Shown here one piece after another: positions 2,473-52,855 of a stretch of DNA of 64,000 bases. This stretch comes from an uncultured Candidatus Saccharibacteria bacterium (GTDB lineage: Bacteria > Patescibacteriota > Minisyncoccia > Portnoybacterales > UBA2143). The stretch spans positions 44,324 through 108,323 of the forward strand of contig CAZQLH010000002.1 in assembly GCA_964594155.1 (NCBI GenBank). Direction: 5' to 3'. The notes under the pieces were generated by a model that saw only the letters and a list, made by a program, of their open reading frames with translations, was not told the origin of the DNA and did no database searches. The first letter of the stretch is position 1. Each line of letters opens with the position of its first letter. The translations under genes were made by a program, and so were the position numbers.

Positions 2473-2557
2473 GGAAGAGTCGGATAACGGTATTCCAGCA
2501 GCTTGCTAAGCTGTCGCCCTTTTGGGCTTGCGGGTTCGAATCCCGCCTCTTCCGCCA
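2473..2557 (+). tRNA. tRNA-Ser (anticodon GCT)
   Basis: Cloverleaf read by eye: acceptor GGAAGAG/CTCTTCC, 3-bp D stem, anticodon loop TTGCTAA, long variable arm, GTTCGAAT T-loop and encoded CCA. Confidence 0.85.
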
Positions 2558-2558
2558 G

Positions 2559-2999
2559 ATGACTATTCAAAATACAATAAATAAAGTATTGCCTATTTTT
2601 AACTCTTATCCAGAAATAAAACTGGTTTATTTTTTTGGTTCAAAAATAACAAATAAAACAGGGTCATTGAGCGATTATGACTTTGCTGTCTATTTAGATA
2701 AAAAAAATAAAAAAAAGCTATTTGAAATTAAAATAAAATTATTAAATCAAATAAGCGATGTTTTAAAAACTGATAAAGTTGATATTGTTATTCTAAACAC
2801 AGTTGAACAACCAGAATTAAAATACAATATAATCAAACAAGGAAAATTAATTCTTGAAAAAGAACCTTTTAAAATTTTAATTGAACCAAAAATCCTAAAT
2901 GAATATTTTGATTTTCGAACTCTACTTTTAAAATATAATTTAACAAAACCTATATATGGAGAGGTTAGATTACGCAGCGAATCTCTCTTTCTTTATTAA
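2559..2999 (+). CDS. Nucleotidyltransferase-domain protein (MNT-like minimal nucleotidyltransferase)
   Basis: FFGS...GSLSDYDFAVYLD matches the GS-x(9-13)-DxD nucleotidyltransferase signature. The start abuts the tRNA. Confidence 0.6.
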   Translation: MTIQNTINKVLPIFNSYPEIKLVYFFGSKITNKTGSLSDYDFAVYLDKKNKKKLFEIKIKLLNQISDVLKTDKVDIVILNTVEQPELKYNIIKQGKLILEKEPFKILIEPKILNEYFDFRTLLLKYNLTKPIYGEVRLRSESLFLY

Positions 3000-3036
3000 T
3001 TTTCATATTAAAACTTTTTTAATTTATAATAAAAAA

Positions 3037-3921
3037 ATGTCTAGCCTAATAATTAAGAATAATAAAATTATTTGTGCCATCCCGCTTACAGGCGCTACAA
3101 GCAAAATCAGAGTAAAAAAACGTATTAATAATTTTGGAAACCCAGTTTCAGTAAAAAAGAATCCTTTTACTGATGATTTTTATATTGAATGGCAGATATC
3201 TTATTTTCTTCCTTTTGATAAAATTTGGGATAATTATAGAAAGGCAAAAAATAAAAAAGTAAGACTAAAAATTATTAATGATCTTTCTTTAAATTATAAA
3301 AACAAGAATGTTGTTTCTGCTTTAAAAAATTTTATACAAAATAATAAGATAAATAGCAAAAAAGAGTTTAAAAATAAATTAGAAAATATCTTTAAAAAAC
3401 ATAATGAAACAATAATAAAAAAAGAACATAAAAACGATAATATTTATGTTCGTTATGAGTTAGCTGATATGTTCAAATTTGCTCTAGAAAATAATTTAAT
3501 AAACAAAAAAGAAATTAAGAGTTTAATAGGTTTTAATCAAGATAAAACTCTTGATATTGAAAAGCAATATAAAATTATCAGAACATCTGTTAATAAAAAG
3601 ATTTATAATAAATTTGAGTATTATGAAGAAAAGACACCATTATTTATAAATAAAATAAATGAAAATAATTTTGTAGAGATTATCTTAGAACATAAACAAC
3701 GTGCTGTTGGATATCAAAGTATGATTTATTTTTGCTCTTATATTAAAAATTTATTTGATGATAAAGAACAGTCGATTATTGGCAGAACAGCTAAATCTAA
3801 TGAGATTATATACCTACCCATAGGAAAAGAAGATCTAGTTAATATTGCTGAAAGTTTTATGGTTGCCTCTCAAGATCATCTTTGGGATATGAAAAAAATA
3901 TTAAATGATATTATTAAATAA
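3037..3921 (+). CDS. Hypothetical protein (294 aa) and a candidate unrecognised nuclease/defense component
   Basis: ORF with an ATG at 3037 in frame with the track ORF. No motif recognised. It is convergent and tail-overlapping with the gamma-class MTase. Confidence 0.45.
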   Translation: MSSLIIKNNKIICAIPLTGATSKIRVKKRINNFGNPVSVKKNPFTDDFYIEWQISYFLPFDKIWDNYRKAKNKKVRLKIINDLSLNYKNKNVVSALKNFIQNNKINSKKEFKNKLENIFKKHNETIIKKEHKNDNIYVRYELADMFKFALENNLINKKEIKSLIGFNQDKTLDIEKQYKIIRTSVNKKIYNKFEYYEEKTPLFINKINENNFVEIILEHKQRAVGYQSMIYFCSYIKNLFDDKEQSIIGRTAKSNEIIYLPIGKEDLVNIAESFMVASQDHLWDMKKILNDIIK

Positions 3922-5044
3922 TAACTTTAAAGTTATAAATATCCTCTTTTTTAATTGATTTACTGCCTACTCGGCAAGTGATATTTCTAAAATAATCAAT
4001 TCTTTCGTTAATTTGTTTACAGATAATTTCTTTTATCTGTTTATTTTTTTTATATTGATCTTGGACATCAAAAACGTAAAACATATCATTTAGAATATCT
4101 TCCCTTGCATTAACTAAACCACATTTTCCTACGCTTGCATTTCCCACTCGAACTACTGCAATTTTATAATCCTCAATTGTTTTGCCTAATGGAATTTTGT
4201 TTTTTGCAAGAATATTTTTAGCTGAAATATTGTTTTCTTTGTATGATTTTTGGACTTTTATGTTTTTACTTTCAAAATATTTATTTAACGGAACGCCTTT
4301 ATCATTTTCAACATATCCATTATTTTTATGAAAAATTACTTGTGGAATTAATTCTTCATTAAATTTATCTATATTAAATACTTCCTCATTCTTAATGCTG
4401 TTTTCGTATATTATAATTATTTTATCTTTTAATTTTTCGATATTAGCAAATATAGCAAAGCAACAAGGTATATTTCTATCAAACCAAATTTTATCATTTT
4501 GATAAACAATAATTGATGAAAAATATTTTAAAATTTCAATTTTAATATTTTTATTTTTATTTTTTATGAAGAAAGAAATAGGCAAAACAAAACCAATGGA
4601 AGAATTTTCATTTTTTAAATGCTTTAATGATTTTAATATAAAAGCATTTTCAATTTTTTCTTTTTCTTTTTTCATTTCTATCTTTGTTAAATAATCAATT
4701 AGCGAGACTTCTGATTTTAAATAATTTTTTGGAAAAAAATAACTTTCTTTTAGATTATACTTGCTAAACGGAGGGTTGCCCACAATAAAATCATATTTAT
4801 TTTGGACTGATAGATTAAAAAAATCAGATGGTTTTTTTGTTAATTCTGGGTCTATTTCACAATCATTAGTATTTTTAAATCCTTTTTCTTTTAAAACTCT
4901 AACAAAATTACCTGTTCCAGATGAAGGTTCTAATATTTTTATATTTTCATTGTATTTTTTATAACTAAATAATAAATCTAATAGTTTTTTAACTATTTCG
5001 ATTTTCGTAAAATATTGACCTAAAATTTCTTGTTTATTTATCAT
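3914..5044 (-). CDS. N6-adenine DNA methyltransferase, gamma-class (M.TaqI-like)
   Basis: GQYFT, ILEPSSGTGNF (motif I) preceding VGNPPFSKY (motif IV NPPF), with a C-terminal TRD-like region. Confidence 0.8.
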   Translation of the reverse strand: MINKQEILGQYFTKIEIVKKLLDLLFSYKKYNENIKILEPSSGTGNFVRVLKEKGFKNTNDCEIDPELTKKPSDFFNLSVQNKYDFIVGNPPFSKYNLKESYFFPKNYLKSEVSLIDYLTKIEMKKEKEKIENAFILKSLKHLKNENSSIGFVLPISFFIKNKNKNIKIEILKYFSSIIVYQNDKIWFDRNIPCCFAIFANIEKLKDKIIIIYENSIKNEEVFNIDKFNEELIPQVIFHKNNGYVENDKGVPLNKYFESKNIKVQKSYKENNISAKNILAKNKIPLGKTIEDYKIAVVRVGNASVGKCGLVNAREDILNDMFYVFDVQDQYKKNKQIKEIICKQINERIDYFRNITCRVGSKSIKKEDIYNFKVII

Positions 5045-5046
5045 AA

Positions 5047-5685
5047 TTAAAACTTTTTTAGTCTGTTAATAGCTAACTCACAATATTTTGGATCAATTTC
5101 AAATCCTATATAATTTCTTTTTAATTGTTTGCAAGCAACTGCCGTGCTCCCGCTTCCGATAAAGGGATCTAAAATAACATCATTTTCTTTTGAAAACATC
5201 ATCAAAATTTCTTTGATAAAAGTTTTAGGCTTAGGTGTGGGGTGATTGATAAAGCCTTCATCTGGCTCTACCATTTTTCCTGGAGTATCTATAAAAATAT
5301 CTTTACCTCTCTTAGTCATTTTTGGATTGCCCTTTTTAAACACCATACAAGACATATATTTTGTAAATCCTATTGGCGATATTACTCTTCCATTGGGACA
5401 GAATAAAACGAAGTTCCAAAAATATTGAAATGGATTATTTTTAAAAATATCTGGCAAAAATTTTGTACTGAAAAAAGTTATTAAAAATGCATCATTTTTC
5501 AAAACTTTATAACTTTCAGGCAATATTGAATAAAATAAATTTAAATTATGATCATTTTTGATGCCCGTTTTATTTAAACCATAAGGAGGATCTGTAAAAA
5601 TTAAATCAATAGAATTATCTGGCAAGGATTTTAATCCCTCAAGGCAGTCTATATTCTGAATTGTATTAACCCAATTTTTTGCCAT
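5047..5685 (-). CDS. DNA methyltransferase, beta-class (N4-cytosine or N6-adenine; PF01555-like)
   Basis: DLIFTDPPYGL (motif IV) precedes ILDPFIGSGSTAVAC (motif I), which is the beta-class motif order. Confidence 0.8.
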   Translation of the reverse strand: MAKNWVNTIQNIDCLEGLKSLPDNSIDLIFTDPPYGLNKTGIKNDHNLNLFYSILPESYKVLKNDAFLITFFSTKFLPDIFKNNPFQYFWNFVLFCPNGRVISPIGFTKYMSCMVFKKGNPKMTKRGKDIFIDTPGKMVEPDEGFINHPTPKPKTFIKEILMMFSKENDVILDPFIGSGSTAVACKQLKRNYIGFEIDPKYCELAINRLKKF

Positions 5686-21826: not shown

Positions 21827-23233
21827 CTAAAGCTTTTTGACCAACCAGTGTTTTGGATCCCAGATATTAGGATCAAAATTATACTGGTTGATTCTCGGCA
21901 ATCTGAGATTGATTGACGGATAAATCACAAAATCCAGTTTATCAGCGCCAAATACATGCTTAATCAGAGAAAAAAGACGATCATTCCGAATCTGATGCAT
22001 GTATGAATCCGGACCTTCAAGAAGATATTTATGCATATACCTGCCGCTAAGATGGTATGATTTCCCGTTTTTGGATGTTAATAATCCAATTAATACAATG
22101 AAAAAATGGGAATCCAAAACCAATCTGACTTTTCGGCTAATTTTATGTCCAGGATTATCCTGAATCTGAGCCAACTCGGAAAAAGTCTGAAAAGCGTTTT
22201 CAGGAGCGTCAATCAGCTTAAACTCGACTTCTTTAAAAGAAGAACTGGTGTATGTTGCAATGCCTTTGTAGATTTCTCTCAGCCGATATGTTAATCCTTT
22301 TTCGTCTATTAAACGGTAATATCTTTCCGGATCTTTCTCAGCAATAATCCCAAGGATTTCCAGTATTTTATCTTTTCCTATTCTATCCAGCAGAAACTTA
22401 CTGGAAAGAATGCAATTTGAAAAAATACTCCTTGTTGCTGTCACATGAAAATTAAAGGGAGATGACGATTCCTGGGCCAAATCGCGAAAGTCGCCAAAAT
22501 CAATCTGATTCAACGCTTTGGAATCCCATTCCGCATAAGGACCCCAAATTTCATCAGATGATTTAGGAGATATTCTTTTGTCATTAAACATCCCTACATT
22601 GTCTGATTTCTCCTTAAACTCATGCAAGATAACCGGAACGCCTGTTGCTGACGGAACCAACATAACTGGAGAATCCCAAGTGCCAATATGGCCAGACCTG
22701 ACAATTCCTTTTTCAATAGCTGCGCTGAAAGACCCCATGTTTTTGCCGTCCTTTACTGAAAAATCATAAGATGATTTTCTATTTGGATCTATCCCGTAAG
22801 GCCAGAAAAAATAATTGCCTGATCTATCGCGCCAATTTTGCCCATGAATGATCCATGACCCGATGATGTTATTAGCAACTGACAAAGATTTACGCTCCTT
22901 AAACCTATGTCTTTTGTTGTTTCTGGAAACAGGGATAACACACATCTCGCCATCGCAAACATGCTTAAGGCTAAAACTTTCCGCGTCTTCTAAAAACAAT
23001 CCTTCCTTAACGCCAATCTTTAGAACAAATTCCCGCTCTTCTCCAGTGTTATTAAGTATAACCTTGCCTATACAAACTCCTTCTTTCCATTGCCCGAAAT
23101 CTCTAACATTGAAACATGGAGAAATCCTAGGATGAGCAATTTGCCTTAAAACTTCTTCAGCAAATCCTCCTGGCATTGCGGAAATAACATTGATAATTTG
23201 TTCTCCTGGAATCAATCCTCCTTTTGCTTTCAT
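21827..23233 (-). CDS. Hypothetical protein (468 aa) with visibly higher GC and different codon usage than its neighbours
   Basis: Long clean ORF and no motif recognised. The nucleotide composition is roughly 40% GC against about 33% for flanking genes, judged by eye. Confidence 0.5.
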   Translation of the reverse strand: MKAKGGLIPGEQIINVISAMPGGFAEEVLRQIAHPRISPCFNVRDFGQWKEGVCIGKVILNNTGEEREFVLKIGVKEGLFLEDAESFSLKHVCDGEMCVIPVSRNNKRHRFKERKSLSVANNIIGSWIIHGQNWRDRSGNYFFWPYGIDPNRKSSYDFSVKDGKNMGSFSAAIEKGIVRSGHIGTWDSPVMLVPSATGVPVILHEFKEKSDNVGMFNDKRISPKSSDEIWGPYAEWDSKALNQIDFGDFRDLAQESSSPFNFHVTATRSIFSNCILSSKFLLDRIGKDKILEILGIIAEKDPERYYRLIDEKGLTYRLREIYKGIATYTSSSFKEVEFKLIDAPENAFQTFSELAQIQDNPGHKISRKVRLVLDSHFFIVLIGLLTSKNGKSYHLSGRYMHKYLLEGPDSYMHQIRNDRLFSLIKHVFGADKLDFVIYPSINLRLPRINQYNFDPNIWDPKHWLVKKL

Positions 23234-42010: not shown

Positions 42011-42196
42011 AAATTATTTCACTTAACGTTTACGTGTATCTGATGTTTCTTGCCGGATTCATCAGTATTTGCGTACATTTTAGCACATTCGTCGACTGTT
42101 TGAATAAGCTTTGGTTGTACGCTATTCGGAGGCAAGAAATATGGGCGGAGCAAAAGGACATTCCATTAATTTACATTTGAGTCCTTTTTGTGTAGC

Positions 42197-42239
42197 CAGA
42201 TATGCGTTGTTATACTTGCTGTTTTTTGGAGGCAAATTC
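42197..42239. repeat. Intergenic element IG1: cagatatgcg...ttttttggaggcaaattc. The 18-mer at 42222-42239 is the exact reverse complement of 43163-43180.
   Basis: Direct sequence comparison. Confidence 0.7.
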
Positions 42240-42291
42240 CCACCCAAACGTCATAAAAATTTTCTGATTTTACACATAGACCTCTTAGCAA

Positions 42292-43116
42292 TTATTTTTT
42301 AGCTGATATCAAGTAATGTTTTCTAGGGTAATAATCATCGTTTCCGATTGCTCTGCTATTATACTCCTTTTCTAGTTTTTCGATCTCTTGTATTAGTCCA
42401 TTCTGTAAATCCGAATTGTTTAAATTTTTGATTCTTCCTTTCGCCCATTCTAAACGTTGCCTAAATTCAATATCTATTTCCTCTTTACTTTCAAAAAATT
42501 GAGTATCATTAATTTGTAGCCCTGAATTTTTTATCAATGGAATGATCCAATCTGACGGATACTCAAAAGTTCTGATAGTTGGAAGAAAGAGAGTCAACGA
42601 TTTCGCGATCATCATATACAAATTTACTATCTCCGTCAGATCTCTAGGATTTCTTTTAGAAAGTTCAGGATCACCCTCAATTTTATCCATAGAAATATAA
42701 TCGAATTTAGGCTCATATCCCCAATAAGCTTCTCTGTCTATAAATATGACTTCACCACCTTTTTTCAAAAATTTAAACAATGCCTTGAAAGTATCGGAAA
42801 GCCTTGAAGGAGTAATCTCTCCAATAAGATAATCAGCTAAAATTAAGTCAAAAGTTGAATCACTAAAGGTAGAACTTTTTGAAATATCACCATATTTTAA
42901 AGTGTAGTTTTCATAACTCTTGTTGATTAGCTCTTGATTTGCTTGTTCACCCTTCCTTAGATCTCCTTCATATGCGAGCAATGTCAAATGCTCTGGATTC
43001 CTTTGAGCGAGAAACCATGCACTAGTTCTACCTGTTCCAGCGTCTAAAACAGATTTACCATCAAGAGATTTTCCTTTAAAATAGTTTTCTATATATTGAA
43101 ACTTTTGACTGATCAT
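42292..43116 (-). CDS. Class I SAM-dependent methyltransferase
   Basis: VLDAGTGRTSAW motif I; 274 aa. Confidence 0.65.
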   Translation of the reverse strand: MISQKFQYIENYFKGKSLDGKSVLDAGTGRTSAWFLAQRNPEHLTLLAYEGDLRKGEQANQELINKSYENYTLKYGDISKSSTFSDSTFDLILADYLIGEITPSRLSDTFKALFKFLKKGGEVIFIDREAYWGYEPKFDYISMDKIEGDPELSKRNPRDLTEIVNLYMMIAKSLTLFLPTIRTFEYPSDWIIPLIKNSGLQINDTQFFESKEEIDIEFRQRLEWAKGRIKNLNNSDLQNGLIQEIEKLEKEYNSRAIGNDDYYPRKHYLISAKK

Positions 43117-43162
43117 AATTTTAAAAATAGTTGCTAAGAAAACTTTTCCACCATACCTTCAT

Positions 43163-43269
43163 GAATTTGCCTCCAAAAAATGGCGTATAACGTTTCTGGA
43201 TATGCGATGTTGCGATAGCAATATGGGTGAAGCGAAGCGGAACCGCATATCCAGTGTTATGTGATGTAG
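43163..43269. repeat. Intergenic element IG2: 18-mer gaatttgcctccaaaaaa, a hairpin with arms ggatatgcg/cgcatatcc (loop containing gcgatagc and gcggaac), then gtgttatgtgatgtag
   Basis: Seen in the sequence. It is homologous to the elements at 45729-45830 and 44813-44866. Confidence 0.7.
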
Positions 43270-43320
43270 TGAAAAACATTCCTTAGTTATTTATAATTTT
43301 TAGTAATTTACATCCTTGTT

Positions 43321-44748
43321 TTAATAGCTTTTAGCAAAATACCAGTCATGTTTTGCCTCTTTTCCTGTTATAAAACATTTACTATTTTTAGGATTACTGT
43401 CTTCAAAATGTTTTGGTAAAACTCTTGATACCATAGAAAATTTTTCTTTCAATAATTTTTCTGATTCTACACTTTCACACCAGCTTGCTTCAAAAAAGCC
43501 AACTTGATCTTTAATATCATGTATACTTTCAATCCTGTGTATATGATACGTTGCAAATTCCTGAGCTTGCTGAAATAAGTTATTTTGAATGCTTTCAAAT
43601 AGTTGGGGTATAATAGAATCTAATTTTGCTAAATGTATTTTTTCTTTTGAATTTGTATCTCTTCTAAAAATTGTTAATTCGGATGAGTCTAGTTCTTTTT
43701 CACCAATTTCAATCCTAATAGGGACACCTTTTACTTCCCAATAATTAAACTTAAAACCAGGAGTCAATTTTTCTCTAATATCAATTTTTGTTCTATAGTC
43801 AGAAAGTTTTGATTCTATTTCTTTTGCAAATCCGATTATTTTATTTTTATTATTCTCTTTGAAAATTGGAGTAATTACAATTTGGATAGGGGCAATGTTC
43901 GGTGGCAAACGAAGTCCTGAATTATCACCATGAGTCATAATAACCGCACCTATTGACCTCCAGCTGAATCCCCAGGAGTTTTGATGGCAAAAATGTTGCT
44001 TTCCATCTTCACCAAGATATTTAACATCAAAAACTTTAGAAAAATTTGTTCCCAAGTAATGACTTGTGGCACCTTGAATTGCCTTACCATCTTTAACCAT
44101 AATTTCTGTTGTTTTTGTTGTGACCGCACCTGCAAATTTTTCCGCTTCAGACTTTTTTCCTGCAATTACAGGTATTGCCATGAATTCATAAATATCTTTG
44201 TAGATATTTAACATTTGATCCACTTCGTTCCTGGCATCTTCTTCGTTTGCAAAAACAGTATGTCCCTCTTGCCATAAAAACTCACTCCACCTTAAAAATG
44301 GTCTTGGACGTTTTTCCCATCTGACAACATTGTTCCATTGATTTAAACGAAGTGGTAAATCTTGATAGCTTTGTATCCATTTAGAATATGTTTTATACAT
44401 TGCTGTTTCGCTGGTTGGTCTAATAACTAGCTTATTCACTAATTCTTCACCACCTCCATGAGTTACAACTGCTAATTCAGGAGAAAATCCCTCAATATGC
44501 TCTTTCTCTGCTTCCAAATTTTCAATAGGTACAAAAATTGGAAAATAAACATTTTCTACTCCAGTAGCTTCAATTCTTTTGGATAACTCACTTTTAATTA
44601 GTTCCCAAATTTTGTATCCGTATGGTTTAACTATTCCGCAACCTCTAACTTCGGAAGTTTCTGCAAGGTCAGCTTCACGAACTACATCATGATACCATTG
44701 AGAAAAATTTTCTTCTTGCTTGGTGATTTGTTTTTTATCGAATTTCAT
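43321..44748 (-). CDS. proS: Proline--tRNA ligase, archaeal/eukaryotic type
   Basis: FSQWYHDVV...GCGIVKPYGYKIWE N-terminus and class II motifs, with a C-terminal zinc-binding domain; 475 aa. Confidence 0.85.
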   Translation of the reverse strand: MKFDKKQITKQEENFSQWYHDVVREADLAETSEVRGCGIVKPYGYKIWELIKSELSKRIEATGVENVYFPIFVPIENLEAEKEHIEGFSPELAVVTHGGGEELVNKLVIRPTSETAMYKTYSKWIQSYQDLPLRLNQWNNVVRWEKRPRPFLRWSEFLWQEGHTVFANEEDARNEVDQMLNIYKDIYEFMAIPVIAGKKSEAEKFAGAVTTKTTEIMVKDGKAIQGATSHYLGTNFSKVFDVKYLGEDGKQHFCHQNSWGFSWRSIGAVIMTHGDNSGLRLPPNIAPIQIVITPIFKENNKNKIIGFAKEIESKLSDYRTKIDIREKLTPGFKFNYWEVKGVPIRIEIGEKELDSSELTIFRRDTNSKEKIHLAKLDSIIPQLFESIQNNLFQQAQEFATYHIHRIESIHDIKDQVGFFEASWCESVESEKLLKEKFSMVSRVLPKHFEDSNPKNSKCFITGKEAKHDWYFAKSY

Positions 44749-44812
44749 AATTAAAGAGTAAATTACTGAAAATTATTTTAAAAAGAGTTTTTCACTATTT
44801 CACATAATGTTT

Positions 44813-44866
44813 GCGGCTATGCGTCTGTACTTGTATGACGTATAGCCGCTGTTAGCTGATGTAATT
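44813..44866. repeat. Intergenic element IG3: 13-bp hairpin gcggctatgcgtc/gacgtatagccgc followed by tgttagctgatgtaatt
   Basis: Seen in the sequence; related to IG2 and IG4. Confidence 0.6.
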
Positions 44867-44870
44867 AAAT

Positions 44871-45695
44871 TCAATTCAAACTTGTAACGTAATTTCTAAA
44901 AATTCCCATTATTTTTTTAGTATTTGGTCCGACACTACCATTTCCTACACGTTTACCATCAATGTTGACTACGGGGATTATTTCTTTGTTGGTTGCAGTA
45001 ATAAAAGCCTCAGAAATTCCTTTTAGCTCCTCAACGCTCAAATCTCTTTCCTCGATGTCAAAATGTTTTTTTGAAAGTTTAATAACTAAGTTTCTTGTCG
45101 TACCGAATAAGATATTCTGTTGGGGCGTGATTAGCTTATTGTTTTTGATAACGAAAAAATTGCTTGTTGTTGCTTCTAGAACACATCCCTCATAAGTATA
45201 CAATATTTCGAAAGCGTTTTTTTGTTTTTGTAAACCTTTTAGAGTTAACGCGGTTAAATAATTTGTTGTTTTAGCTCGCGGAAAATCCCTTTTATAATTA
45301 TGTGTAATAATTTTTATCCCCCTAGAGTAAACATGACCGGGTAGTTTCTCAAGCTTGCTGACTAATATATAAAAAGTAGGAGAGAATTTACCGGTATGTT
45401 TTTCTTCAGACCCACCAGTTAATACAATTCTTATATTTGATTCTTTATACTTATTTTTAGAAAGCAATTTTTTTATTATTTTTTTAATTTCAATATCTGT
45501 TGCCGGAATTTTTAGATTAATTGCCTTGGCGGAATTCTTAAGTCTTACCAAGTGTTCATCAAATAAAAAAACTTTTCCATTGTAGGTTCTCAAAGAATCA
45601 AAAACCCCATAGCTTCTTAATAATCCGAGGTCTGCCAAATTAATCGCAGCTTTATTTTCTGGCAGAAATTTTCCATTTAAATAACAAATTTTCAT
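44871..45695 (-). CDS. Class IV (fold-type IV PLP) aminotransferase, branched-chain/D-amino-acid aminotransferase family
   Basis: MKICYLNGKF start and EATTSNFFVIKNNKLITP...LFGTTR motifs. Confidence 0.7.
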   Translation of the reverse strand: MKICYLNGKFLPENKAAINLADLGLLRSYGVFDSLRTYNGKVFLFDEHLVRLKNSAKAINLKIPATDIEIKKIIKKLLSKNKYKESNIRIVLTGGSEEKHTGKFSPTFYILVSKLEKLPGHVYSRGIKIITHNYKRDFPRAKTTNYLTALTLKGLQKQKNAFEILYTYEGCVLEATTSNFFVIKNNKLITPQQNILFGTTRNLVIKLSKKHFDIEERDLSVEELKGISEAFITATNKEIIPVVNIDGKRVGNGSVGPNTKKIMGIFRNYVTSLN

Positions 45696-45728
45696 TGAAT
45701 TGAATTTAATTATTTCAGCTAACGTTCC

Positions 45729-45830
45729 GGCATATCTGAAGTTTTTTGTGGAGCGATAGCGGAACAAAAAATTTGGGAGAGCATTTTTCGGAGAAAAGTG
45801 CGAACCAGATATGCCGTGTTATGTGATGTA
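45729..45830. repeat. Intergenic element IG4: hairpin arms ggcatatctg/cagatatgcc (loop containing gcgatagc and ggaac), then gtgttatgtgatgta
   Basis: Seen in the sequence; homologous to IG2. Confidence 0.7.
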
Positions 45831-45899
45831 CCTGTTTTCCTTCAATCCGTCTTAGCGGATTGCTCTTAAAAAGAAAGAAATGGATTTGATTTTTTCCCG

Positions 45900-45948
45900 T
45901 TTGGGCGAGGGGCAAGAGGGGCTGGGGGTGAATTGCCCCTCGCCCAAA
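45900..45948. repeat. Perfect 16-bp GC-rich hairpin tttgggcgaggggcaa / ttgcccctcgcccaaa immediately 3' of the 635-aa ORF
   Basis: Seen in the sequence. Confidence 0.65.
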
Positions 45949-45955
45949 CACCTTA

Positions 45956-47863
45956 TTATTCTTTTGTTCGGTAATGCTCCTCAATAATTTTGTGTCCGGT
46001 TGCAACGAGTTCATGATATCCATGATTTGCTCTTGGGTCTTCGCTCATATTGTGAACATGGCGATCATCAAAGCCAAGTAAATCACCTTCTTTTTCTGAT
46101 GTGTCGGCTTGCCCGATGTTATGTCTAGTTTGAAATTCGTGAATAGCGGTTGTTGGAGTGCCGTCATAGAAAACAAGATGTTTTGGTTTTTCGTCTGGGT
46201 GTTGTTCAAAATATGTTTCCCAATATTCTTTGGCTGTTATAGTGTTTTCTGCCCTTTTCCAGTTTGCACTGGCAGATAGTAATATGGATCGCGCAGCATC
46301 TTCTTCTGTTTGATCTCCATAACTCCATTTGTTGCCCTTGTACAAATACATGCCTATTTTGTCGTTTGATAAAGTCTCATTTACTACATCTTCTGCCGTT
46401 TCTTCATCGAAGCCGAGTGCAATCATTTCTTCTCTCATAACACTAATAAAATCTCTTAGCATATTCTGTCGTTTTGAATAATCTCTTTCGTCTGAATATG
46501 CTTTGTACGCTTTTATAGACGGTGATTCTTCCGTTAAGCTCGTTGCCCACACAACAAAGGCAGAAACAAGTTTTTCGTCTTCCACCATGACTCTTTTTGC
46601 CTCACCATCGATTGTTTTAATTTCGGAAGCATATTTTGAGCCGGTTTGCGGGTCAACGGGTGTGTTCTCGGGAAGAAAAACTACACCTGCGTCAACTGGA
46701 ATCCCTGGATTGTCTAGTGTTGCAGGCCATACAAAAACATCGTTCCATTTTGTTTCACTTTGCGGTTTTGTGAAGTCCTTTTCCCAGCCATTGAAAGCAT
46801 AGTCATGTTGTGATGCCAGAACGTCAGAGGGGTACAAAAAGAAAACCTCGTTACTTTTTTCACCACCATAATATCCGTCAGCCACTATTTGAGCGGCAAA
46901 ATGGACAGCGGTTTTGTCGGGATAATTTGGAGCAGTTGCAAGTGAATGATTGAGTTGAGCGTTGAGCCGTTTCTTAGCTTCCTCCTCGTCTTCTGCTTGT
47001 AGCGCCCAATCTTCAACAAATTTTTGTATGGATGCTTCATCTCTTGCGAGCAAACCATCTCGGACTGCCATTGGTGGACGAAGCAGTTTTTGATCTCGCA
47101 ATACGCTCGTTAATCCATCGTGAAATTCCTGCAAACCAGCAGAGTGATAGACCATAGCGTTATGATCTCGAAATCCTTGTCGGGTAACATGCGAAAGAAA
47201 ATGCGGATTCAGCCTGCGCCATAGAGCAATGTATTCTTCCGTGCTAAGTTCGGCAAGCACTTCTGGACGAAGTAGTTCTCGTTTTTCTGAGTTCGACAAT
47301 GGCATTGTTTCCATTTTGGCGTAGTACGCTTCAAGCATTTTTTCTGGGTTGGGCAACTCTGCTTGTTTTTGAGCAAGTTTTTCTAATTCATCACGAAGTG
47401 CAAAAGCTTGTGAAGTAAGTTCTTCCATTTCAGCGTCCATTGTTGCGATTTCTGTTTGCATCTCTGCCGCTGATTTGTCCTTGATGCGGAAAAGTTTTTT
47501 GAGTCGTGTGGCAATTGTTTCAAGTCGTTGTTCCAATGCCAAAACTTTTTCAGCTTTGAGTGCGTCCAGTTCTCTAGCTTTTTGTTCTTTTTGTCCGAAC
47601 GATTCTGATTTTCCAGCAATACCTTCACCAACTGTGGCTGCACGTGTTCTCACCTCTGAAATTTCAGCTTCAACAGTTTGACGACCTTCGATGTCGTATT
47701 TTTGAGATATAGCGTGAGGGTCAAGCAAAGTACGTTTAATTTGCTCAATAGTTTGAGCAACAACTTCGGTTGTTTCTTGTGCAGTCTCAGCTTCTGGCGT
47801 GGGTTCGCCAGTAGGTTTTTCGGCGTGAGCTTGTTGTGTGTGTCTTTGTTCTTGGTTATCCAT
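45956..47863 (-). CDS. Hypothetical protein (635 aa) with a coiled-coil N-terminal half, strongly GC-rich and compositionally foreign
   Basis: About 45-50% GC by eye against about 33% for neighbours. The protein is rich in E/A/Q/T/R and poor in K/N/I, unlike the rest of the window. No motif recognised. Confidence 0.55.
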   Translation of the reverse strand: MDNQEQRHTQQAHAEKPTGEPTPEAETAQETTEVVAQTIEQIKRTLLDPHAISQKYDIEGRQTVEAEISEVRTRAATVGEGIAGKSESFGQKEQKARELDALKAEKVLALEQRLETIATRLKKLFRIKDKSAAEMQTEIATMDAEMEELTSQAFALRDELEKLAQKQAELPNPEKMLEAYYAKMETMPLSNSEKRELLRPEVLAELSTEEYIALWRRLNPHFLSHVTRQGFRDHNAMVYHSAGLQEFHDGLTSVLRDQKLLRPPMAVRDGLLARDEASIQKFVEDWALQAEDEEEAKKRLNAQLNHSLATAPNYPDKTAVHFAAQIVADGYYGGEKSNEVFFLYPSDVLASQHDYAFNGWEKDFTKPQSETKWNDVFVWPATLDNPGIPVDAGVVFLPENTPVDPQTGSKYASEIKTIDGEAKRVMVEDEKLVSAFVVWATSLTEESPSIKAYKAYSDERDYSKRQNMLRDFISVMREEMIALGFDEETAEDVVNETLSNDKIGMYLYKGNKWSYGDQTEEDAARSILLSASANWKRAENTITAKEYWETYFEQHPDEKPKHLVFYDGTPTTAIHEFQTRHNIGQADTSEKEGDLLGFDDRHVHNMSEDPRANHGYHELVATGHKIIEEHYRTKE

Positions 47864-48169
47864 AATTTTGAAGTTTAATCTGTTAATTATAGCTTAGATT
47901 AAGGCTAATATCAATCAAAAAACGTTTTCGTAGCGACCAGCGGGAGCGGAGAAAACACCTTATTCCCCCCTCTATAAAAAATAAAAAATCAAATCCATTT
48001 TCTTTTAAAAGCTTGGGCAATAGCCCAAAAAGGAAAACATGTATTTCACATAACTCGTTTATATACAATCTTTTTATATATAATTATTATTATTTGTATA
48101 TTATATACAATTTATGATATAATCTACAAATAATAACTTCATTAATATTTTAACAAAATACATTTATTT

Positions 48170-48985
48170 ATGCAAGAATATTTAATCCAAACAAAAAACG
48201 AACTAAAATTAAGAAACTACAGCATAAGAACAATAAAAAGTTATCTTTTGTGCTTAAAAGAATATTTTTCTTTTATTGAAAAAGATTTTGAAAAATTAAA
48301 TGTTGATCAAATAAGAAAATTTCTCTTAAAAAAACAAGAAAAAGGATATGCTCCTCAAACAATTAATCTTTATCTTAACTCAATAAAATTCTTTTATCGT
48401 GAAATTATTAAATCTTCTAATAATATAGATCTTAAATTCGCTAAAACAAATAAAAGATTGCCTGTTATTTTATCTCGGAAAGAAATTAAAAAAATTACAG
48501 AAAAAATAAAAAATAAAAAACATAAATTGATTATCTCTTTAACTTATGGGGCTGGTTTAAGAATCAGCGAAATAATTAATCTTAAAGTAAAAGATATTAA
48601 TTTAGAAGAATTAACTATTCATATTAAACAAGCTAAAGGCAAACAAGATAGAATCACTATATTCCCTGAAATACTAAAAAAAGATATTGGCATCTTAATT
48701 GCTTTAAAAGATATGAATAACTATATTTTTGAGAGTAATCGGGGCGGCAAACTATCTATGGGTTCTCTTCAGCAAATATTTAAAAAGGCGTTAAAATTAT
48801 CAAAAATTAAAAAACAGGCTACTTTTCATTCTCTACGACATAGTTTTGCCACTCACCTATTAGAAAATGGAACTGATGTTCGCTATGTCCAAGAATTATT
48901 AGGCCATCAAAATATTAGAACAACTCAAATATATACTAAAGTTACCAATCCTAGTCTTAAAAACATTAAAAGCCCTTTTAATTAA
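48170..48985 (+). CDS. Tyrosine site-specific recombinase (XerC/XerD/phage-integrase family)
   Basis: C-terminal HSLRHSFATHLLENGTDVRYVQELLGHQNIRTTQIYTKV carries the R...HxxR...Y catalytic residues; 271 aa. Confidence 0.8.
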   Translation: MQEYLIQTKNELKLRNYSIRTIKSYLLCLKEYFSFIEKDFEKLNVDQIRKFLLKKQEKGYAPQTINLYLNSIKFFYREIIKSSNNIDLKFAKTNKRLPVILSRKEIKKITEKIKNKKHKLIISLTYGAGLRISEIINLKVKDINLEELTIHIKQAKGKQDRITIFPEILKKDIGILIALKDMNNYIFESNRGGKLSMGSLQQIFKKALKLSKIKKQATFHSLRHSFATHLLENGTDVRYVQELLGHQNIRTTQIYTKVTNPSLKNIKSPFN

Positions 48986-48987
48986 GT

Positions 48988-50544
48988 TTGACGAAAAGGG
49001 TTAAAAATGTTAATTTAAGCCATATAATGACCAAGAAAAAAGAAAAACAGAATAAGTTAAAAACAAGACCGCCTGTTGTGGTCATTTTAGGCCATGTTGA
49101 TCATGGAAAATCTTCAATTTTAGAAGCAGTTAAAGATCTTAAAATTACTGAAAAAGAATCTGGCGGAATTACACAGCATATTGGAGCCTACCAAGTGGAA
49201 CATCAAGGCAAAAAAATCACTTTTATTGACACGCCTGGCCATGAGGTTTTTTCAGCAATGCGTTCTCGGGGCGCTAAAGTGGCTGATATTGCTATTTTAG
49301 TTGTGGCAGCTGAAGAAGGTGTTAAGCCGCAAACTAAAGAAGCTATTGCCCATATTAAAAAAACCGGTCTTCCTTTAATTGTTGCTTTGAATAAAATTGA
49401 TAAAAAAGAAGCTCAGCCAGAAAAAGTTAAACGTGAATTGTCAGAAAACGATATTTTAGTTGAATCATTAGGCGGTAAAATTCCTTGTATTAATCTTTCA
49501 GCTAAAAAAGGCCAAGGCATAGATGAATTTTTAGAAATGATTCTTTTAGTAGCTGAAATGGAAGAATTAAAAGACGAGTCAAGTGAATTAGCTTCTGGAC
49601 TAGTTATTGAATCATATCAAGATGACCGTCGCGGAGCTACAGCTACTCTTTTGGTTAAAAAAGGAATTTTAGAAAAAAAAGATATTATTGGCACTGATTC
49701 AACTATGGGGAAAATTAAATCAATGGAAAATTTCCAATTTCGACCTATAGAAAAAGCGCCTACTTCTATGCCTGTTATTATCACCGGCTTTAACCAAGTT
49801 CCCCAAGTAGGAGAAAAATTCTCTGTATTTAAAAGCCTTGATGAAGCTCAAATTAGAATTGACAAAAAAACAGCCAAAAGAAATATGATGCCTGGTGGAG
49901 AAAAAGAAGTTTTTTCTTTTGACCCAGATAAAAAAGTCCTTAATATTATTCTTAAAGCTGATGTTCATGGTTCTTTAGAAGCTATTAAAGAATCATTTAA
50001 AAGTATTCCTTCTGATGAAGTAATTATTAGAATCTTAAAATCTGAAGTTGGAGAAATTAATGAATCAGATATTAAATTAGCTGAATCAGCCAAGGCAAAA
50101 GTAATTGGATTTAGAAATAAAGCCAATCAATCTGTTAAGCAATTAGCTCAACAAAAGAAAATAAGGGTTTCTACTTTTGAAATAATCTATGAGCTTATCC
50201 AAGAAATAAGGCAATTAGCTTCTAATCTTTTAGATCCGGAAATAACTAGAAATGATTTAGGCAAAGTTAAAATCTTAGCTGTATTCCGAACTGAAAAAGA
50301 CAGACAGATTATTGGAGGCAAAGTAACTAGCGGACAAATTAAAAAAGGAACCTTGATTGATGTTATCCAAGATGGAAAAAAAGCAGGCCAAGGAAAAATA
50401 ATACAGCTTCAACGCGATAAAAAAGAAGCTGATGAAGTAAACAAAGGACAAGAATGCGGCCTTCTTTTTCAAGGAACATCTGTTATTGAAAAAGGAGATA
50501 TCCTAGAATTTTACGAAGAAGAAAGAAAAAAGAGAGAAATATAA
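48988..50544 (+). CDS. infB: Translation initiation factor IF-2 (short form)
   Basis: G-domain motifs [15 protein letters not shown] and NKID. The true start is possibly at the downstream ATG. Confidence 0.8.
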
Positions 50545-50924: not shown

Positions 50925-50996
50925 GGCCTTGTGGCGGAGTGGCTTACGCGGCGGTTTGCAAAACCGCTTACACCGGTTCAATTCCGGTCAAGGCCT
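50925..50996 (+). tRNA. tRNA-Cys (anticodon GCA)
   Basis: Acceptor GGCCTTG/CAAGGCC, anticodon stem GCGGT/ACCGC with loop TTGCAAA and discriminator U. Confidence 0.75.
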
Positions 50997-51017
50997 CTCG
51001 ATAAACAATAAATTTAT

Positions 51018-51103
51018 GCCGGAGTGATGGAATTGCCAGACATGCACGACTTAAAATCGTGTGGGCTTAGCCCGTGCGGGTTGGAATCCCGCCTCCGGCA
51101 CCA
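51018..51103 (+). tRNA. tRNA-Leu (anticodon TAA)
   Basis: Acceptor GCCGGAG/CTCCGGC, anticodon stem CACGA/TCGTG with loop CTTAAAA, a long variable arm and an encoded CCA. The T-loop TTGGAAT is unusual. Confidence 0.7.
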
Positions 51104-51109
51104 AAAAAT

Positions 51110-51865
51110 ATGGAAGGTTTATTTACTAAAGCTATCAATTCCCACTTCTTTAAAGAATGGAATTCAGAAATGAGTTATGTTTTAGGATACATAACAGCCG
51201 ATGGATGTATATCTATGGATAAAAAAAGAAAAAATCCATTTTCTCTTAATATAACTTCTGCTGAAAAAAAACATTTATATAAAATAAGAAAAGCACTTGG
51301 ATCAACTCATAAAATAGGTAAAAAAATAGGAGGATACTCTGGTGGGATTTCTTACCAAATTCAACTTCGTAATCCAGTTATTTGTAATAATCTTATAAAT
51401 TTAGGTATCTTACCTAGAAAGACATACAATTTAAATCCAATAAAAGTCCCTAATAAATATTTTTCTGATTTTGTTCGGGGATTTTTTGATGGCGATGGGA
51501 CAGTTTATATTTACACAGTTAATAGTACACCACAAATAAAAACTGAATTTGTAAGCACAAGTTTGCCTTTTATAACTGAATTTAATAAAGATCTCTGTAA
51601 AGGACTTAACATTCCTCAAAAAGCTATTCACAAACAAATTCCTAAAATAAAAAATAAAGTTGTTATGTATTCTATTTGTCTATATGTTGATGATTGTGAA
51701 AGATTAAATAAATTTATGTATCAAAATAATCCATCCTTATATCTCCCACGAAAGTATAAAGTTTTTGAAAAATGGAAAACTATTAAAAGAAGAAAATACA
51801 CGAAACAAAATTACCCATCAAAAGTTGGCTGGCAATTAAATCAAAATTACTTAAGAACAAACTAA
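51110..51865 (+). CDS. LAGLIDADG-family homing endonuclease, free-standing
   Basis: Two dodecapeptide motifs, LGYITADGCI and VRGFFDGDGTVYIY. The ATG lies 7 nt after the tRNA CCA. Confidence 0.75.
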   Translation: MEGLFTKAINSHFFKEWNSEMSYVLGYITADGCISMDKKRKNPFSLNITSAEKKHLYKIRKALGSTHKIGKKIGGYSGGISYQIQLRNPVICNNLINLGILPRKTYNLNPIKVPNKYFSDFVRGFFDGDGTVYIYTVNSTPQIKTEFVSTSLPFITEFNKDLCKGLNIPQKAIHKQIPKIKNKVVMYSICLYVDDCERLNKFMYQNNPSLYLPRKYKVFEKWKTIKRRKYTKQNYPSKVGWQLNQNYLRTN

Positions 51866-52379: not shown

Positions 52380-52488
52380 AATATTGTTAAAGCAAATTAA
52401 AAAAGCCCTTCAGGACTTTCCCATATACTATCATATCTAATCCAATTTGTCAAGGATTTTTAGGGTATTTTATTGAATAAAAATCGTG

Positions 52489-52560
52489 AGCGGGTGAGCG
52501 GAATCGAACCGCCGTCGCGTGATTGGCAACCACGTGTAATAACCACTATACGACACCCGC
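52489..52560 (-). tRNA. tRNA-Gly (anticodon GCC)
   Basis: Reverse complement has acceptor GCGGGTG/CACCCGC and anticodon stem CGTGG/TCACG with loop TTGCCAA. Confidence 0.7.
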
Positions 52561-52611
52561 ATATTCAATTGTTCTTATTATACTACACTATCTCAATTTT
52601 TCAAGAAATTG

Positions 52612-52683
52612 TGCCGAGGGGCGGATTTGAACCGCCGACACCACGAGTTTCAGTCGTGTGCTCTACCCCTGAGCTACCTCGGC
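52612..52683 (-). tRNA. tRNA-Phe (anticodon GAA)
   Basis: Reverse complement has acceptor GCCGAGG/CCTCGGC, D stem GCTC/GAGC, loop CTGAAAC and GTTCAAAT. Confidence 0.8.
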
Positions 52684-52700
52684 ATATATTTAATTTTCTG

Positions 52701-52775
52701 TGGACCGTGTGGGACTCGAACCCACGACCCCTTCGATGCCATCGAAGTACTCTAAACCAACTGAGCTAACGGCCC
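52701..52775 (-). tRNA. tRNA-Ala (anticodon GGC)
   Basis: Reverse complement has acceptor GGGCCGT/ACGGTCC with G3-U70, loop ATGGCAT and GTTCGAGT. Confidence 0.7.
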
Positions 52776-52783
52776 CTTGCCAG

Positions 52784-52855
52784 TACCCCTACTAGGAGTC
52801 GAACCTAGATCAATGGCTTAGGAAGCCACGGCTCTATCCATTGAGCTATAGGGGC
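52784..52855 (-). tRNA. tRNA-Arg (anticodon CCT)
   Basis: Reverse complement has acceptor GCCCCTA/TAGGGGT, anticodon stem GTGGC/GCCAT with loop TTCCTAA and GTTCGACT. Confidence 0.7.

Follow-up and report, generated by a model that had tools for sequence, protein, structure and literature searches.

Integrons, the classic bacterial device of gene capture, are defined by the integrase IntI and by the attC sites of their cassettes. In sedentary chromosomal integrons (e.g. the Vibrio superintegron with its VCR sites) a divergent tyrosine recombinase stands beside the insertion site attI, and a co-oriented array of cassettes carries accessory genes, including resistance-type and defence genes. The cassettes are mostly promoterless and are expressed from the promoter Pc. 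A second kind of mobile unit is formed by the pdif (dif) modules of Acinetobacter, which are moved by XerC/XerD (PMC6449649, PMC11705084). Here we analysed a 64,000-nucleotide (nt) stretch of DNA from an uncultured Candidatus Saccharibacteria bacterium (contig CAZQLH010000002.1), called the window below; all coordinates are those of the window. It encodes a 635-amino-acid (aa) protein whose open reading frame (ORF) is, with high probability, the cargo of the first of four mobile cassettes in a chromosomal integron-like array of Patescibacteria (candidate phyla radiation, CPR).

The array, consisting of a tyrosine recombinase and four cassettes, occupies positions 42016-48985. All cassettes lie on the strand opposite to the recombinase and point in one direction, and each starts at a core box (G/A)TTAT(R)TGAAAT. 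(The start of a cassette is referred to as its A-end, the other terminus as its B-end.) Cassette 1 (45724..48054, minus strand, 2331 bp) contains the 635-aa gene. Cassette 2 (44809..45723, minus strand) starts with GTTAGCTGAAAT (45712-45723), has a class IV aminotransferase gene (44871-45695) as its cargo and is closed by a short junction (44809-44862, minus strand). Cassette 3 (43192..44808, minus strand, 1617 bp) starts with ATTATGTGAAAT (44797-44808), encodes a prolyl-tRNA synthetase (ProRS, 43321-44748) and has its end junction at 43192-43267 (minus strand). Cassette 4 (42028..43191, minus strand), starting with GTTATACGCCAT (43180-43191), encodes an S-adenosylmethionine-dependent methyltransferase (42292-43116), and its terminal junction is long and degenerate. 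The last core site of the array, GTTAAGTGAAAT (42016..42027, minus strand), is followed by the bidirectional terminator of a convergent DUF4446 gene. Among the four cassettes only cassette 1 has long-form ends and foreign composition. An earlier note made on this DNA had correctly called the 635-aa ORF (45956..47863, minus strand) and had described it as the integrase-proximal unit of a gene block, which agrees with its position divergent from the recombinase gene; the terminal inverted repeats of cassette 1, the three further cassettes downstream and the recombination junctions had been overlooked.

Cassette 3 was precisely present or absent between samples of one strain (contigs 99.9% identical). 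The two forms differed by exactly 1617 bp, which is the length of cassette 3 as set by its core boxes. The deletion was found in three contigs (L007, L209 and L211) and the intact form in four (L008, L210, L212 and L213), with both forms occurring in several samples. With cassette 3 the sequence reads ...CGCATAGCCGCAAAC ATTA↓TGTGAAAT...ProRS...CCAGAAAC GTTA↓TACGCCAT..., and without it ...CGCATAGCCGCAAAC ATTA↓TACGCCAT... (the arrow marks the joint). The deletion joint itself reads ...AAACATTA↓TACGCC, i.e. ATTA↓TACGCC, which locates the exchange inside RTTA↓T, although the indel is compatible with more than one phosphodiester bond. Since only about nine bases are common to the two sites, assembly collapse is implausible. 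Judged from the sequences of the two forms, the indel is the signature of a conservative site-specific exchange within RTTA↓T. Precise gain or loss of a whole cassette is a feature shared with integrons. The core (G/A)TTAT(R)T resembles the integron consensus GTTRRRY, in which exchange takes place between G and TT, but is one position off it. A housekeeping gene such as that for ProRS acting as an excisable cassette is unusual; in this, and in the patescibacterial host, the array differs from integrons. (A publicly annotated 52-aa gene at 10585-10743 of L008, corresponding to about 43148-43306 of the window, overlaps the junction of cassettes 3 and 4 and is probably spurious.) As the two forms show, two directly repeated R' boxes recombine within RTTA↓T, whereby a whole cassette is deleted or inserted; the adjacent recombinase would be the catalyst.

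The junctions between cassettes have the form R''(...CATAAC) - L'' - variable hairpins - L' - (G)AAC - R' and make up an imperfect palindrome of fixed asymmetry, the boxes being 2 nt apart on the left side and 5 nt apart on the right (a 3-nt difference). In layout they resemble the attC sites that separate integron cassettes, which are imperfect palindromes of the type R''-L''...L'-R' with structure conserved over sequence and a fixed asymmetry, and which fold as single strands with extrahelical bases; the junctions are not known to match the attC model. In cassette 1 the junction linker (45724..45817, minus strand), located by junction detection, comprises L'' GGCATATCTGG (45805-45815), an internal hairpin (45781-45801) and L' TCAGATATGCC (45729-45739) followed by GGAAC, all on the minus strand. 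A junction detector found three junctions in the window (45822-45720, 44855-44805 and 43260-43188) and some fifty in other loci; the complementary 11-mers were of many different sequences. Covariation was tested on 18 junctions which were anchored only by the B-end and the next AAC-RTTA and had not been chosen for pairing. Ten of the 18 had 10 of 11 bases complementary, with differing sequences. Mean stem pairing was 7.44 of 11 against 5.26 +/- 0.39 for shuffled partners, a value reached by none of 500 shuffles (maximum 6.61). The same organization was seen in another locus (L166), where six cassette-borne genes of one orientation follow the integrase and the junctions read ...CATCACATAAC ↓ GC TGCGTATGCGG - hairpins - TCGCATACGCA GGAAC ↓ GTTA.... 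One of the L166 cassettes is shared with locus L141. The shared sequence extends from the GTTATG of the A-end via the B-end and a 113-nt linker to the next GTTA, and from this extent follows the rule for cassette boundaries, from the A-end to the next GTTA.

The recombinase heading the array (48170..48985, plus strand) is a tyrosine recombinase of 271 aa, as compared with about 320-337 aa for IntI. It passed the NCBIfam model NF040815 (XerA/integron-integrase) with 222.6 bits (cutoff 220). Alignment with IntI1 ran end to end with 28% identity and left about 36 aa of gaps where the additional domain of IntI lies. Homologues of the recombinase (40-66% identity) stand divergently, 85-120 nt from the A-end, in L001, L129, L166, L128 and L158 as they do in the window; five more loci have a homologue farther upstream of the cassettes. 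At least six independent loci share this geometry of recombinase and cassette start, and in these six the cassettes are inserted beside a divergent integrase, as in integrons. The intervening region of the window (48055..48169) ends ...ATTGTATATAAACGA↓GTTATG, and the consensus of the flank in integrase-adjacent loci is TTCGyATAwAAmsrA↓GTTAT. It contains three direct repeats similar to ATTGTATATAA (48058-48069, 48073-48084 and 48100-48111) and a 20-nt palindrome, 95% perfect, formed by TTATTATTTGTATATTATAT and ATATAATCTACAAATAATAA (48087-48136). Because of the conserved flank, the repeats and the palindrome we read 48055..48169 as an attI-like site, in which the palindrome and the direct repeats may be operators or accessory binding sites. 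The start of infB (IF-2) lies 3 nt from the integrase stop (48985-48988) and is followed by rbfA on the same strand. The platform recombinase thus appears to be embedded in a housekeeping operon here; in L001 and L166 its homologues stand beside different genes.

The boundaries of cassette 1 were set by its paired ends and by the limits of homology with two other loci: L001, in a 1.06-Mb genome, where a homologue of the gene with 91% identity stands in a different context, and L016, a 2263-bp Logan contig with an 80% identical gene. Homology with both starts exactly at 48054, and similarity between the window and L001 starts and stops abruptly inside the non-coding flanks, at inverted repeats. 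The outer arms of these repeats (45815-45842 and 48030-48057) are 28 nt long and 86% complementary, and the inner arms (45878-45895 and 47983-48000) match in 18 of 18 positions; each pair is unique within the window, with none expected by chance. L016 ends 24 nt and 4 nt beyond the arms, and many further homologues were found on contigs of 2.0-2.3 kb. As the contigs of homologues stop at the arms, assemblies break at the cassette ends. In the three-way alignment of the window, L001 and L016 the non-coding ends were better conserved than the coding sequence.

Read inward on the minus strand, the A-end begins with the outer arm, the R' core box GTTATGTGAAATACATGTTTTCC (48032..48054), identified by arm search and family comparison. 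It is followed, within 47983..48028, by a small hairpin (48013-48028) and by the inner arm AAATGGATTTGATTTTTT (47983-48000). Next come the G-rich motif GAGGGGGGAATAAGGTG and a terminator-like stem, GTTTTC...GAAAAC with a T-run (together 47917..47972), which are kept in most A-ends. A predicted promoter, TTGATA-17-TATAAT (47886..47914), matches in 11 of 12 positions, is the best site of the region and is conserved in L001 and L016. The B-end (45818..45895, minus strand) consists of the inner arm (45878-45895), a small hairpin (45844-45861) and the outer arm, the R'' box GGAAAACAGGTACATCACATAAC (45818-45840), found by arm search. The small B-end hairpin shows compensatory changes, its stem being AATCCG/CGGATT in the window, AATTCG/CGAATT in L001 and AATTTG/CAAATT in L016. 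Cassette 1 is thus a long-form member of the array, in which the R boxes are extended into terminal inverted repeats of about 75-115 nt and which carries, in this order, the terminator-like stem, its own predicted promoter of the sigma-70 type, the gene, and a GC hairpin with a C-rich loop. The terminator-like stem would insulate the cassette against upstream transcription; the two stems together would insulate it transcriptionally or stabilise the 3' end of the mRNA. Such inverted ends, the cassette's own terminator-like stem and predicted promoter, and the 3' hairpin distinguish the long form from the cassettes of integrons. The system is therefore called integron-like and not a canonical integron, since the IntI-specific domain is missing and the cassette has a predicted promoter of its own.

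The GC hairpin (45899..45949, minus strand) was identified by inverted-repeat search, folding and family comparison. It begins 6 nt past the TAA stop of the 635-aa gene and is a perfect 17-nt inverted repeat (arms 45899-45915 and 45933-45949) around a 17-nt loop, ATTCACCCCCAGCCCCTCT. The perfect 16-bp hairpin at 45900-45948 reported in the earlier note is therefore real and rightly placed just past the stop, except that its size is 17 pairs. As RNA it has a folding energy of -35.1 kcal/mol (z = -4.8 relative to dinucleotide shuffles). An intrinsic (Rho-independent) terminator was considered and rejected because no U-run directly follows the GC-rich stem on the gene strand (the stem is followed by CGGGAAAAAAUC), and a scan for consensus terminators made no call. 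The 54-nt hairpin region is 100% identical in the window, L001 and L016. Among 32 distinct copies across the cassette family the stem sequences vary while complementarity is kept (e.g. GGGCGAGGGGCAA/TTGCCCCTCGCCC, GGGCTTCGGGAA/TTCCCGAAGCCC, TGATTTTGGGCA/TGCCCAAAATCA and GGGGTGGCGGGCA/TGCCCGCCACCCC), a 3x3 internal loop is present in some of them, and the loop ATTCACCCC-N-CCCCTCT is constant throughout. Covariation of the hairpin is claimed here from the individual sequences, since register shifts between subfamilies made the RNAalifold consensus weak. Rfam contained no family for the hairpin or the junctions. Because the stems vary, the loop is constant and the cargo is unrelated, the hairpin must be regarded as a module of the cassette family, and not as a feature of this gene, for which it had been taken. 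The G-rich motif GAGGGG..AAT (47956-47972) is the inverted counterpart of the C-rich hairpin loop (45916-45932). The motif occurs once at each end, and the terminal inverted repeat thereby reaches about 115 nt; the motif may be a binding site.

The ends of cassette 1, including the hairpin with the constant C-rich loop, flank at least 14 unrelated sets of cargo genes. The 23-nt arm pattern matched more than 120 metagenome contigs of the Joint Genome Institute (a lower bound). The two end types are polar. The A-end has the order GTTATATGAAATACATGTTTTCC, GC hairpin, CTCTTAAAAAGAATCCGATTTTGTTTTT, G-rich motif and terminator-like stem with T-run, after which promoter and gene follow; the B-end, read inward, has GTTATATGATGTACATGTTTTCC and the covarying small hairpin, and then the same 28-nt inner repeat before the GC hairpin. 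Distances between paired A- and B-ends are 0.95-4.5 kb, and the cargo runs from A to B in all but one case. Besides the 635-aa family itself and several unknowns, the cargo comprises an APH-type kinase, an Arr rifampin ADP-ribosyltransferase, DNA methylases, a four-gene restriction-modification unit, DsrE plus a membrane protein, a GT2 glycosyltransferase, a Schlafen/AlbA_2 trio, a trypsin-like protease with a membrane protein, and a 1385-aa helicase matching the defence candidates PDC-S37 and Hhe. The 43 first ORFs beside the ends fell into 36 sequence clusters, an upper bound because B-ends were included in the count. One copy (L092, 5730-7816) contains decayed cargo inside the same, intact ends: the 635-aa gene is split there into ORFs of 261 and 331 aa with about 150 nt missing, and is a pseudogene.

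That cassette 1 entered the lineage laterally is suggested by several comparisons. Between the window and L001 the cargo genes have a nucleotide identity of 0.879, with 0.050 nonsynonymous (dN) and 0.54 synonymous (dS) substitutions per site, whereas the integrases are 66.7% identical as proteins and their dS is saturated. The non-coding cassette ends are 91-93% identical, as against 76% at third codon positions. L001 carries the cassette in second place of its array, after a DUF559 cassette, and in a copy from Magasanikbacteria it stands behind a peptidase cassette. The cassette-borne gene has a GC content of about 42% in hosts of 33% and 36%, whereas the gene GC of more distant, non-cassette homologues is below that of their hosts. 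The horizontal acquisition put forward in the earlier note is thus supported, on stronger grounds than composition alone: the discordant identities of cassette and integrase, the different position in the array and the discrete, conserved ends. Synteny gave no reason to revise it, as none was conserved among 57 homologue loci. The protein is not foreign to the phylum, however, as had also been supposed; full-length homologues with 48-91% identity occur across many lineages of Patescibacteria.

Composition gave a more qualified picture. The GC content of the 635-aa ORF is 42.4%, compared with 32.9% for the window; as a fraction, 0.424, it exceeds the 0.32 averaged by 59 other ORFs (z = 2.4). 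It is the highest among all protein-coding genes of the window, the only richer 'ORF' (52473-52769) not being a gene, as it overlaps four clustered tRNA genes (Gly, Phe, Ala and Arg, 52488-52855, minus strand). Among the codon positions the first shows the strongest excess (58.7%, z = 3.2) and the third a modest one (31.3%, z = 1.5 relative to the other ORFs); the excess is therefore due mostly to amino-acid composition. When the protein was recoded with host codon usage, the expected GC was 38.7%, and the expected GC at third positions (GC3) 23.4%. By the recoded value of 0.387, the GC excess divides into about 60% due to amino-acid composition and about 40% due to codon choice. The usage rich in E, A, Q, T and R that had been remarked upon thus accounts for the larger part of the excess only. 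Relative to the recoded expectation the GC3 excess is real (about 0.312 against 0.234, z about 5), but it is equalled or exceeded by ORF 21827-23233, with two other ORFs coming near. The 635-aa gene is thus the richest coding gene, as had been claimed, but in GC3 and codon statistics it is not a unique outlier. ORF 21827-23233 (minus strand, 468 aa, no Pfam match) has a GC3 of 0.349 against 0.241 expected (z = 5.6) and, because its excess equals that of the 635-aa gene, may likewise be of foreign origin.

A profile search of 1.84 billion representatives returned 528 clusters of the 635-aa family, seen only in CPR-labelled genomes, and the family was also found in 64 genome loci. The homologs in other phyla that a foreign origin would have led one to look for were thus not seen. 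Several family-bearing metagenome-assembled genomes (L033, L039, L042, L044, L045, L050, L081 and others) are labelled outside CPR, as Gammaproteobacteria, Pseudomonadales, Bdellovibrionales, an archaeon or Oscillospiraceae; these are probably mis-binned or mislabelled CPR contigs. Purifying selection is strong (dN/dS about 0.09, window vs L001). The AlphaFold models have a pLDDT of 87.8 for the full length and 90.5 for residues 175-635, and predict a disordered segment (2-35), a long helical hairpin (39-170) and then an alpha/beta domain of 460 aa. The helical or coiled-coil part thus spans residues 39-170, roughly one fifth of the protein, where the earlier note had predicted the whole N-terminal half. 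Invariant residues are H225, T227, Q229, G230, R232, D233, H234, H240, D316, H321, YGGE332-335, E339, D347, S351, Q352, Q368, N374 and W379; the invariant His, Asp, Glu, Gln and Trp residues suggest an enzyme.

In accordance with the earlier failure to recognise a motif, searches of Pfam, NCBIfam, PHROG, PADLOC and PDB sequences, with the single sequence and with a profile, gave nothing but coiled-coil noise, and Pfam on 65 family members gave coiled-coil noise and weak DUF687 and LXG matches. Despite the confident model, Foldseek found no fold match better than E = 0.01, either with the full-length model in PDB and BFVD or with the C-terminal model in PDB. The gene neighbourhood was not shared, the largest neighbour family occurring in just 8 of the 57 homologue loci. 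A link to type IV secretion, suggested by loci L004 and L021, was dropped since genes similar to TraG/VirD4 occurred in only 4 of the 57. The domain also forms the C-terminal part of two giant proteins (3030 and 1616 aa), in which the fusion partners contained no informative domains. In this, and in having an N-terminal helical hairpin followed by a conserved C-terminal globular domain, the protein resembles polymorphic toxins and effectors (e.g. LXG), and three members gave weak LXG matches (E about 0.02). Unlike these toxins, it has no significant toxin-family match, no immunity gene in the cassette and no secretion signal, so that the likeness is a lead only. We tentatively suggest that the protein might be an effector-type enzyme with a helical module for delivery or oligomerisation.

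Several observations weigh against the integron-like interpretation of the array, or narrow it. The recombinase is without the IntI-specific insertion and scores as Xer-like: with the integron-integrase model TIGR02249 it reached 211 bits, below the cutoff of 265, and matched in two stretches. It is by adjacency that the recombinase is linked to the exchange it would catalyse. For cassette 1 itself no product of recombination was seen among the contigs of this strain: every contig with the integrase also has cassette 1, and there was none without it. Homologues of the gene at 64% identity or less lack such ends and stand in ordinary, varied contexts, and none of the more distant ones had convincing inverted repeats of its own. 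The larger share of the GC excess is compositional, as described above, and the terminator, insulator and binding roles proposed for the hairpins are deduced from sequence. Past the B-end, the linkers of the window and L001 are only 44% identical; the moving unit is therefore not always 'A-end to next R'', and R'' (B-side) sites may also recombine, as in dif modules. The novelty of such arrays in CPR should be read in the light of the search made for them, a limited full-text search of the literature, which found no description.

According to an alternative reading the units are elements of the dif-module type, shuffled in a Xer-like manner at R'' or R' by means of inverted double-stranded Xer-type sites and without a folded single-stranded attC-like substrate. 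Acinetobacter dif modules use the host XerC/XerD, and their sites are 28 bp long, with 11-nt XerC and XerD arms on either side of a 6-nt centre. The modules resemble the units described here in enclosing accessory genes between inverted Xer-type sites with dif-like half-sites, in their arrays of alternating site orientation and in their mosaic combinations of genes and linkers. Each end of our units can be described as 'L box - 7-9 nt - R box', the R box TTATGTGAAAT being similar to the XerD arm (TTATGTTAAAT) of E. coli dif and the L box CGCATA to its XerC arm. A- and B-ends stand inverted around every gene module, the recombinase scores XerA-like, the same gene module is joined to different linkers in the window and L001, and deletion of the ProRS cassette requires just two direct double-stranded sites. 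At the B side even an 11-6-11 arrangement can be read (ACATCACATAA-CACGGC-ATATCTGGTTC); the A-side spacer is 3 nt longer and there departs from the dif spacing. Here, in contrast to Acinetobacter, the array is headed by a dedicated recombinase and its own attI-like site in a fixed divergent geometry, and the arrays are chromosomal and not plasmid-borne (the cassette had no match in PLSDB, nor the arm pattern in IMG/VR). The junctions are long structured palindromes whose covarying stems and conserved 3-nt asymmetry resemble the hallmark of folded attC sites, and no module was seen in inverted orientation. We consider a dif-type mechanism possible but not likely; it would be a variant of mechanism and is compatible with the cassette reading.

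Vertical inheritance of an ordinary CPR gene, with a GC content due to protein composition and a transcription terminator at its 3' end, would agree with the spread of the family over CPR-labelled lineages, with the purifying selection and with the compositional share of the GC excess, GC3 being no unique outlier. It is nevertheless improbable, because the discrete ends are common to unrelated cargo, the identities of cassette and integrase are discordant, L001 has the cassette at another array position, synteny is lacking, no U-tract follows the hairpin, and synonymous sites are less conserved than the non-coding ends. Still less can be said for a transposon similar to an insertion sequence (IS) or a miniature inverted-repeat transposable element (MITE), whose 635-aa product would be a novel transposase for the terminal inverted repeats. 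Long terminal inverted repeats, one large ORF and short contigs stopping at the repeats are what such an element would show, and MITE-like or repetitive extragenic palindromic sequences are similarly repeated, structured, intergenic and assembly-breaking. But the ends studied here are polar (A vs B), associated with a recombinase and delimit precisely exchanged units; they surround many unrelated genes, with no transposase inside the units and no target-site duplication at about 90 ends. Most homologues of the protein lack the repeats, the protein itself has no recognisable transposase domain or fold, and the rearrangement observed is a conservative core-site exchange beside a tyrosine recombinase. 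It is equally hard to credit that cassette 1 is an invertible segment, a phase-variation switch flipped by the neighbouring recombinase on the inverted arms. Inverted repeats do surround a gene next to a tyrosine recombinase, which weakly matches tyrosine-type DNA invertase models; yet all copies have one orientation relative to ends and integrase, and with the predicted promoter inside the segment inversion would change nothing obvious.

Two other regions of the window deserve mention. A very AT-rich block (2500-5050, GC 0.22) holds a protein with an R.Pab1-type restriction endonuclease domain (2956-3921) and a 376-aa ORF (3914-5044); as the GC3 of both ORFs is well below expectation, it may be another acquired island. 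A free-standing gene similar to LAGLIDADG homing endonucleases (51074-51865, plus strand) stands directly after tRNA-Cys and tRNA-Leu genes (50925-51103).

Taken together, the integron-like interpretation leads us, on balance, to favour the view that the array belongs to a widespread gene-capture platform of Patescibacteria, characterised by a Xer-like integrase without the IntI domain, giant attC-like junctions and many self-sufficient expression cassettes. Its cargo would include defence, resistance-type and unknown-function genes and even a tRNA synthetase, and among these the 635-aa protein represents a family seen only in CPR-labelled genomes, whose model showed no relative in PDB. As an abundant and highly conserved family, seen under CPR labels only, with a confident model and no matching fold, it is a target for biochemistry. 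Arrays of this kind would probably escape standard tools such as IntegronFinder, which depend on models of IntI and attC. The cassettes offer ready-made insulated expression units and recombination sites for the emerging genetics of CPR. If the view is correct, the integron principle, with a simpler Xer-like recombinase and larger junctions, extends to CPR, a large and poorly understood part of bacterial diversity, either as an independent origin of that principle or as its ancestral Xer-like form, which bears on how integrons arose from Xer-type systems. The system would then be a main route of gene flux in the reduced CPR genomes, and would explain the exchange of defence and resistance-type genes among them.

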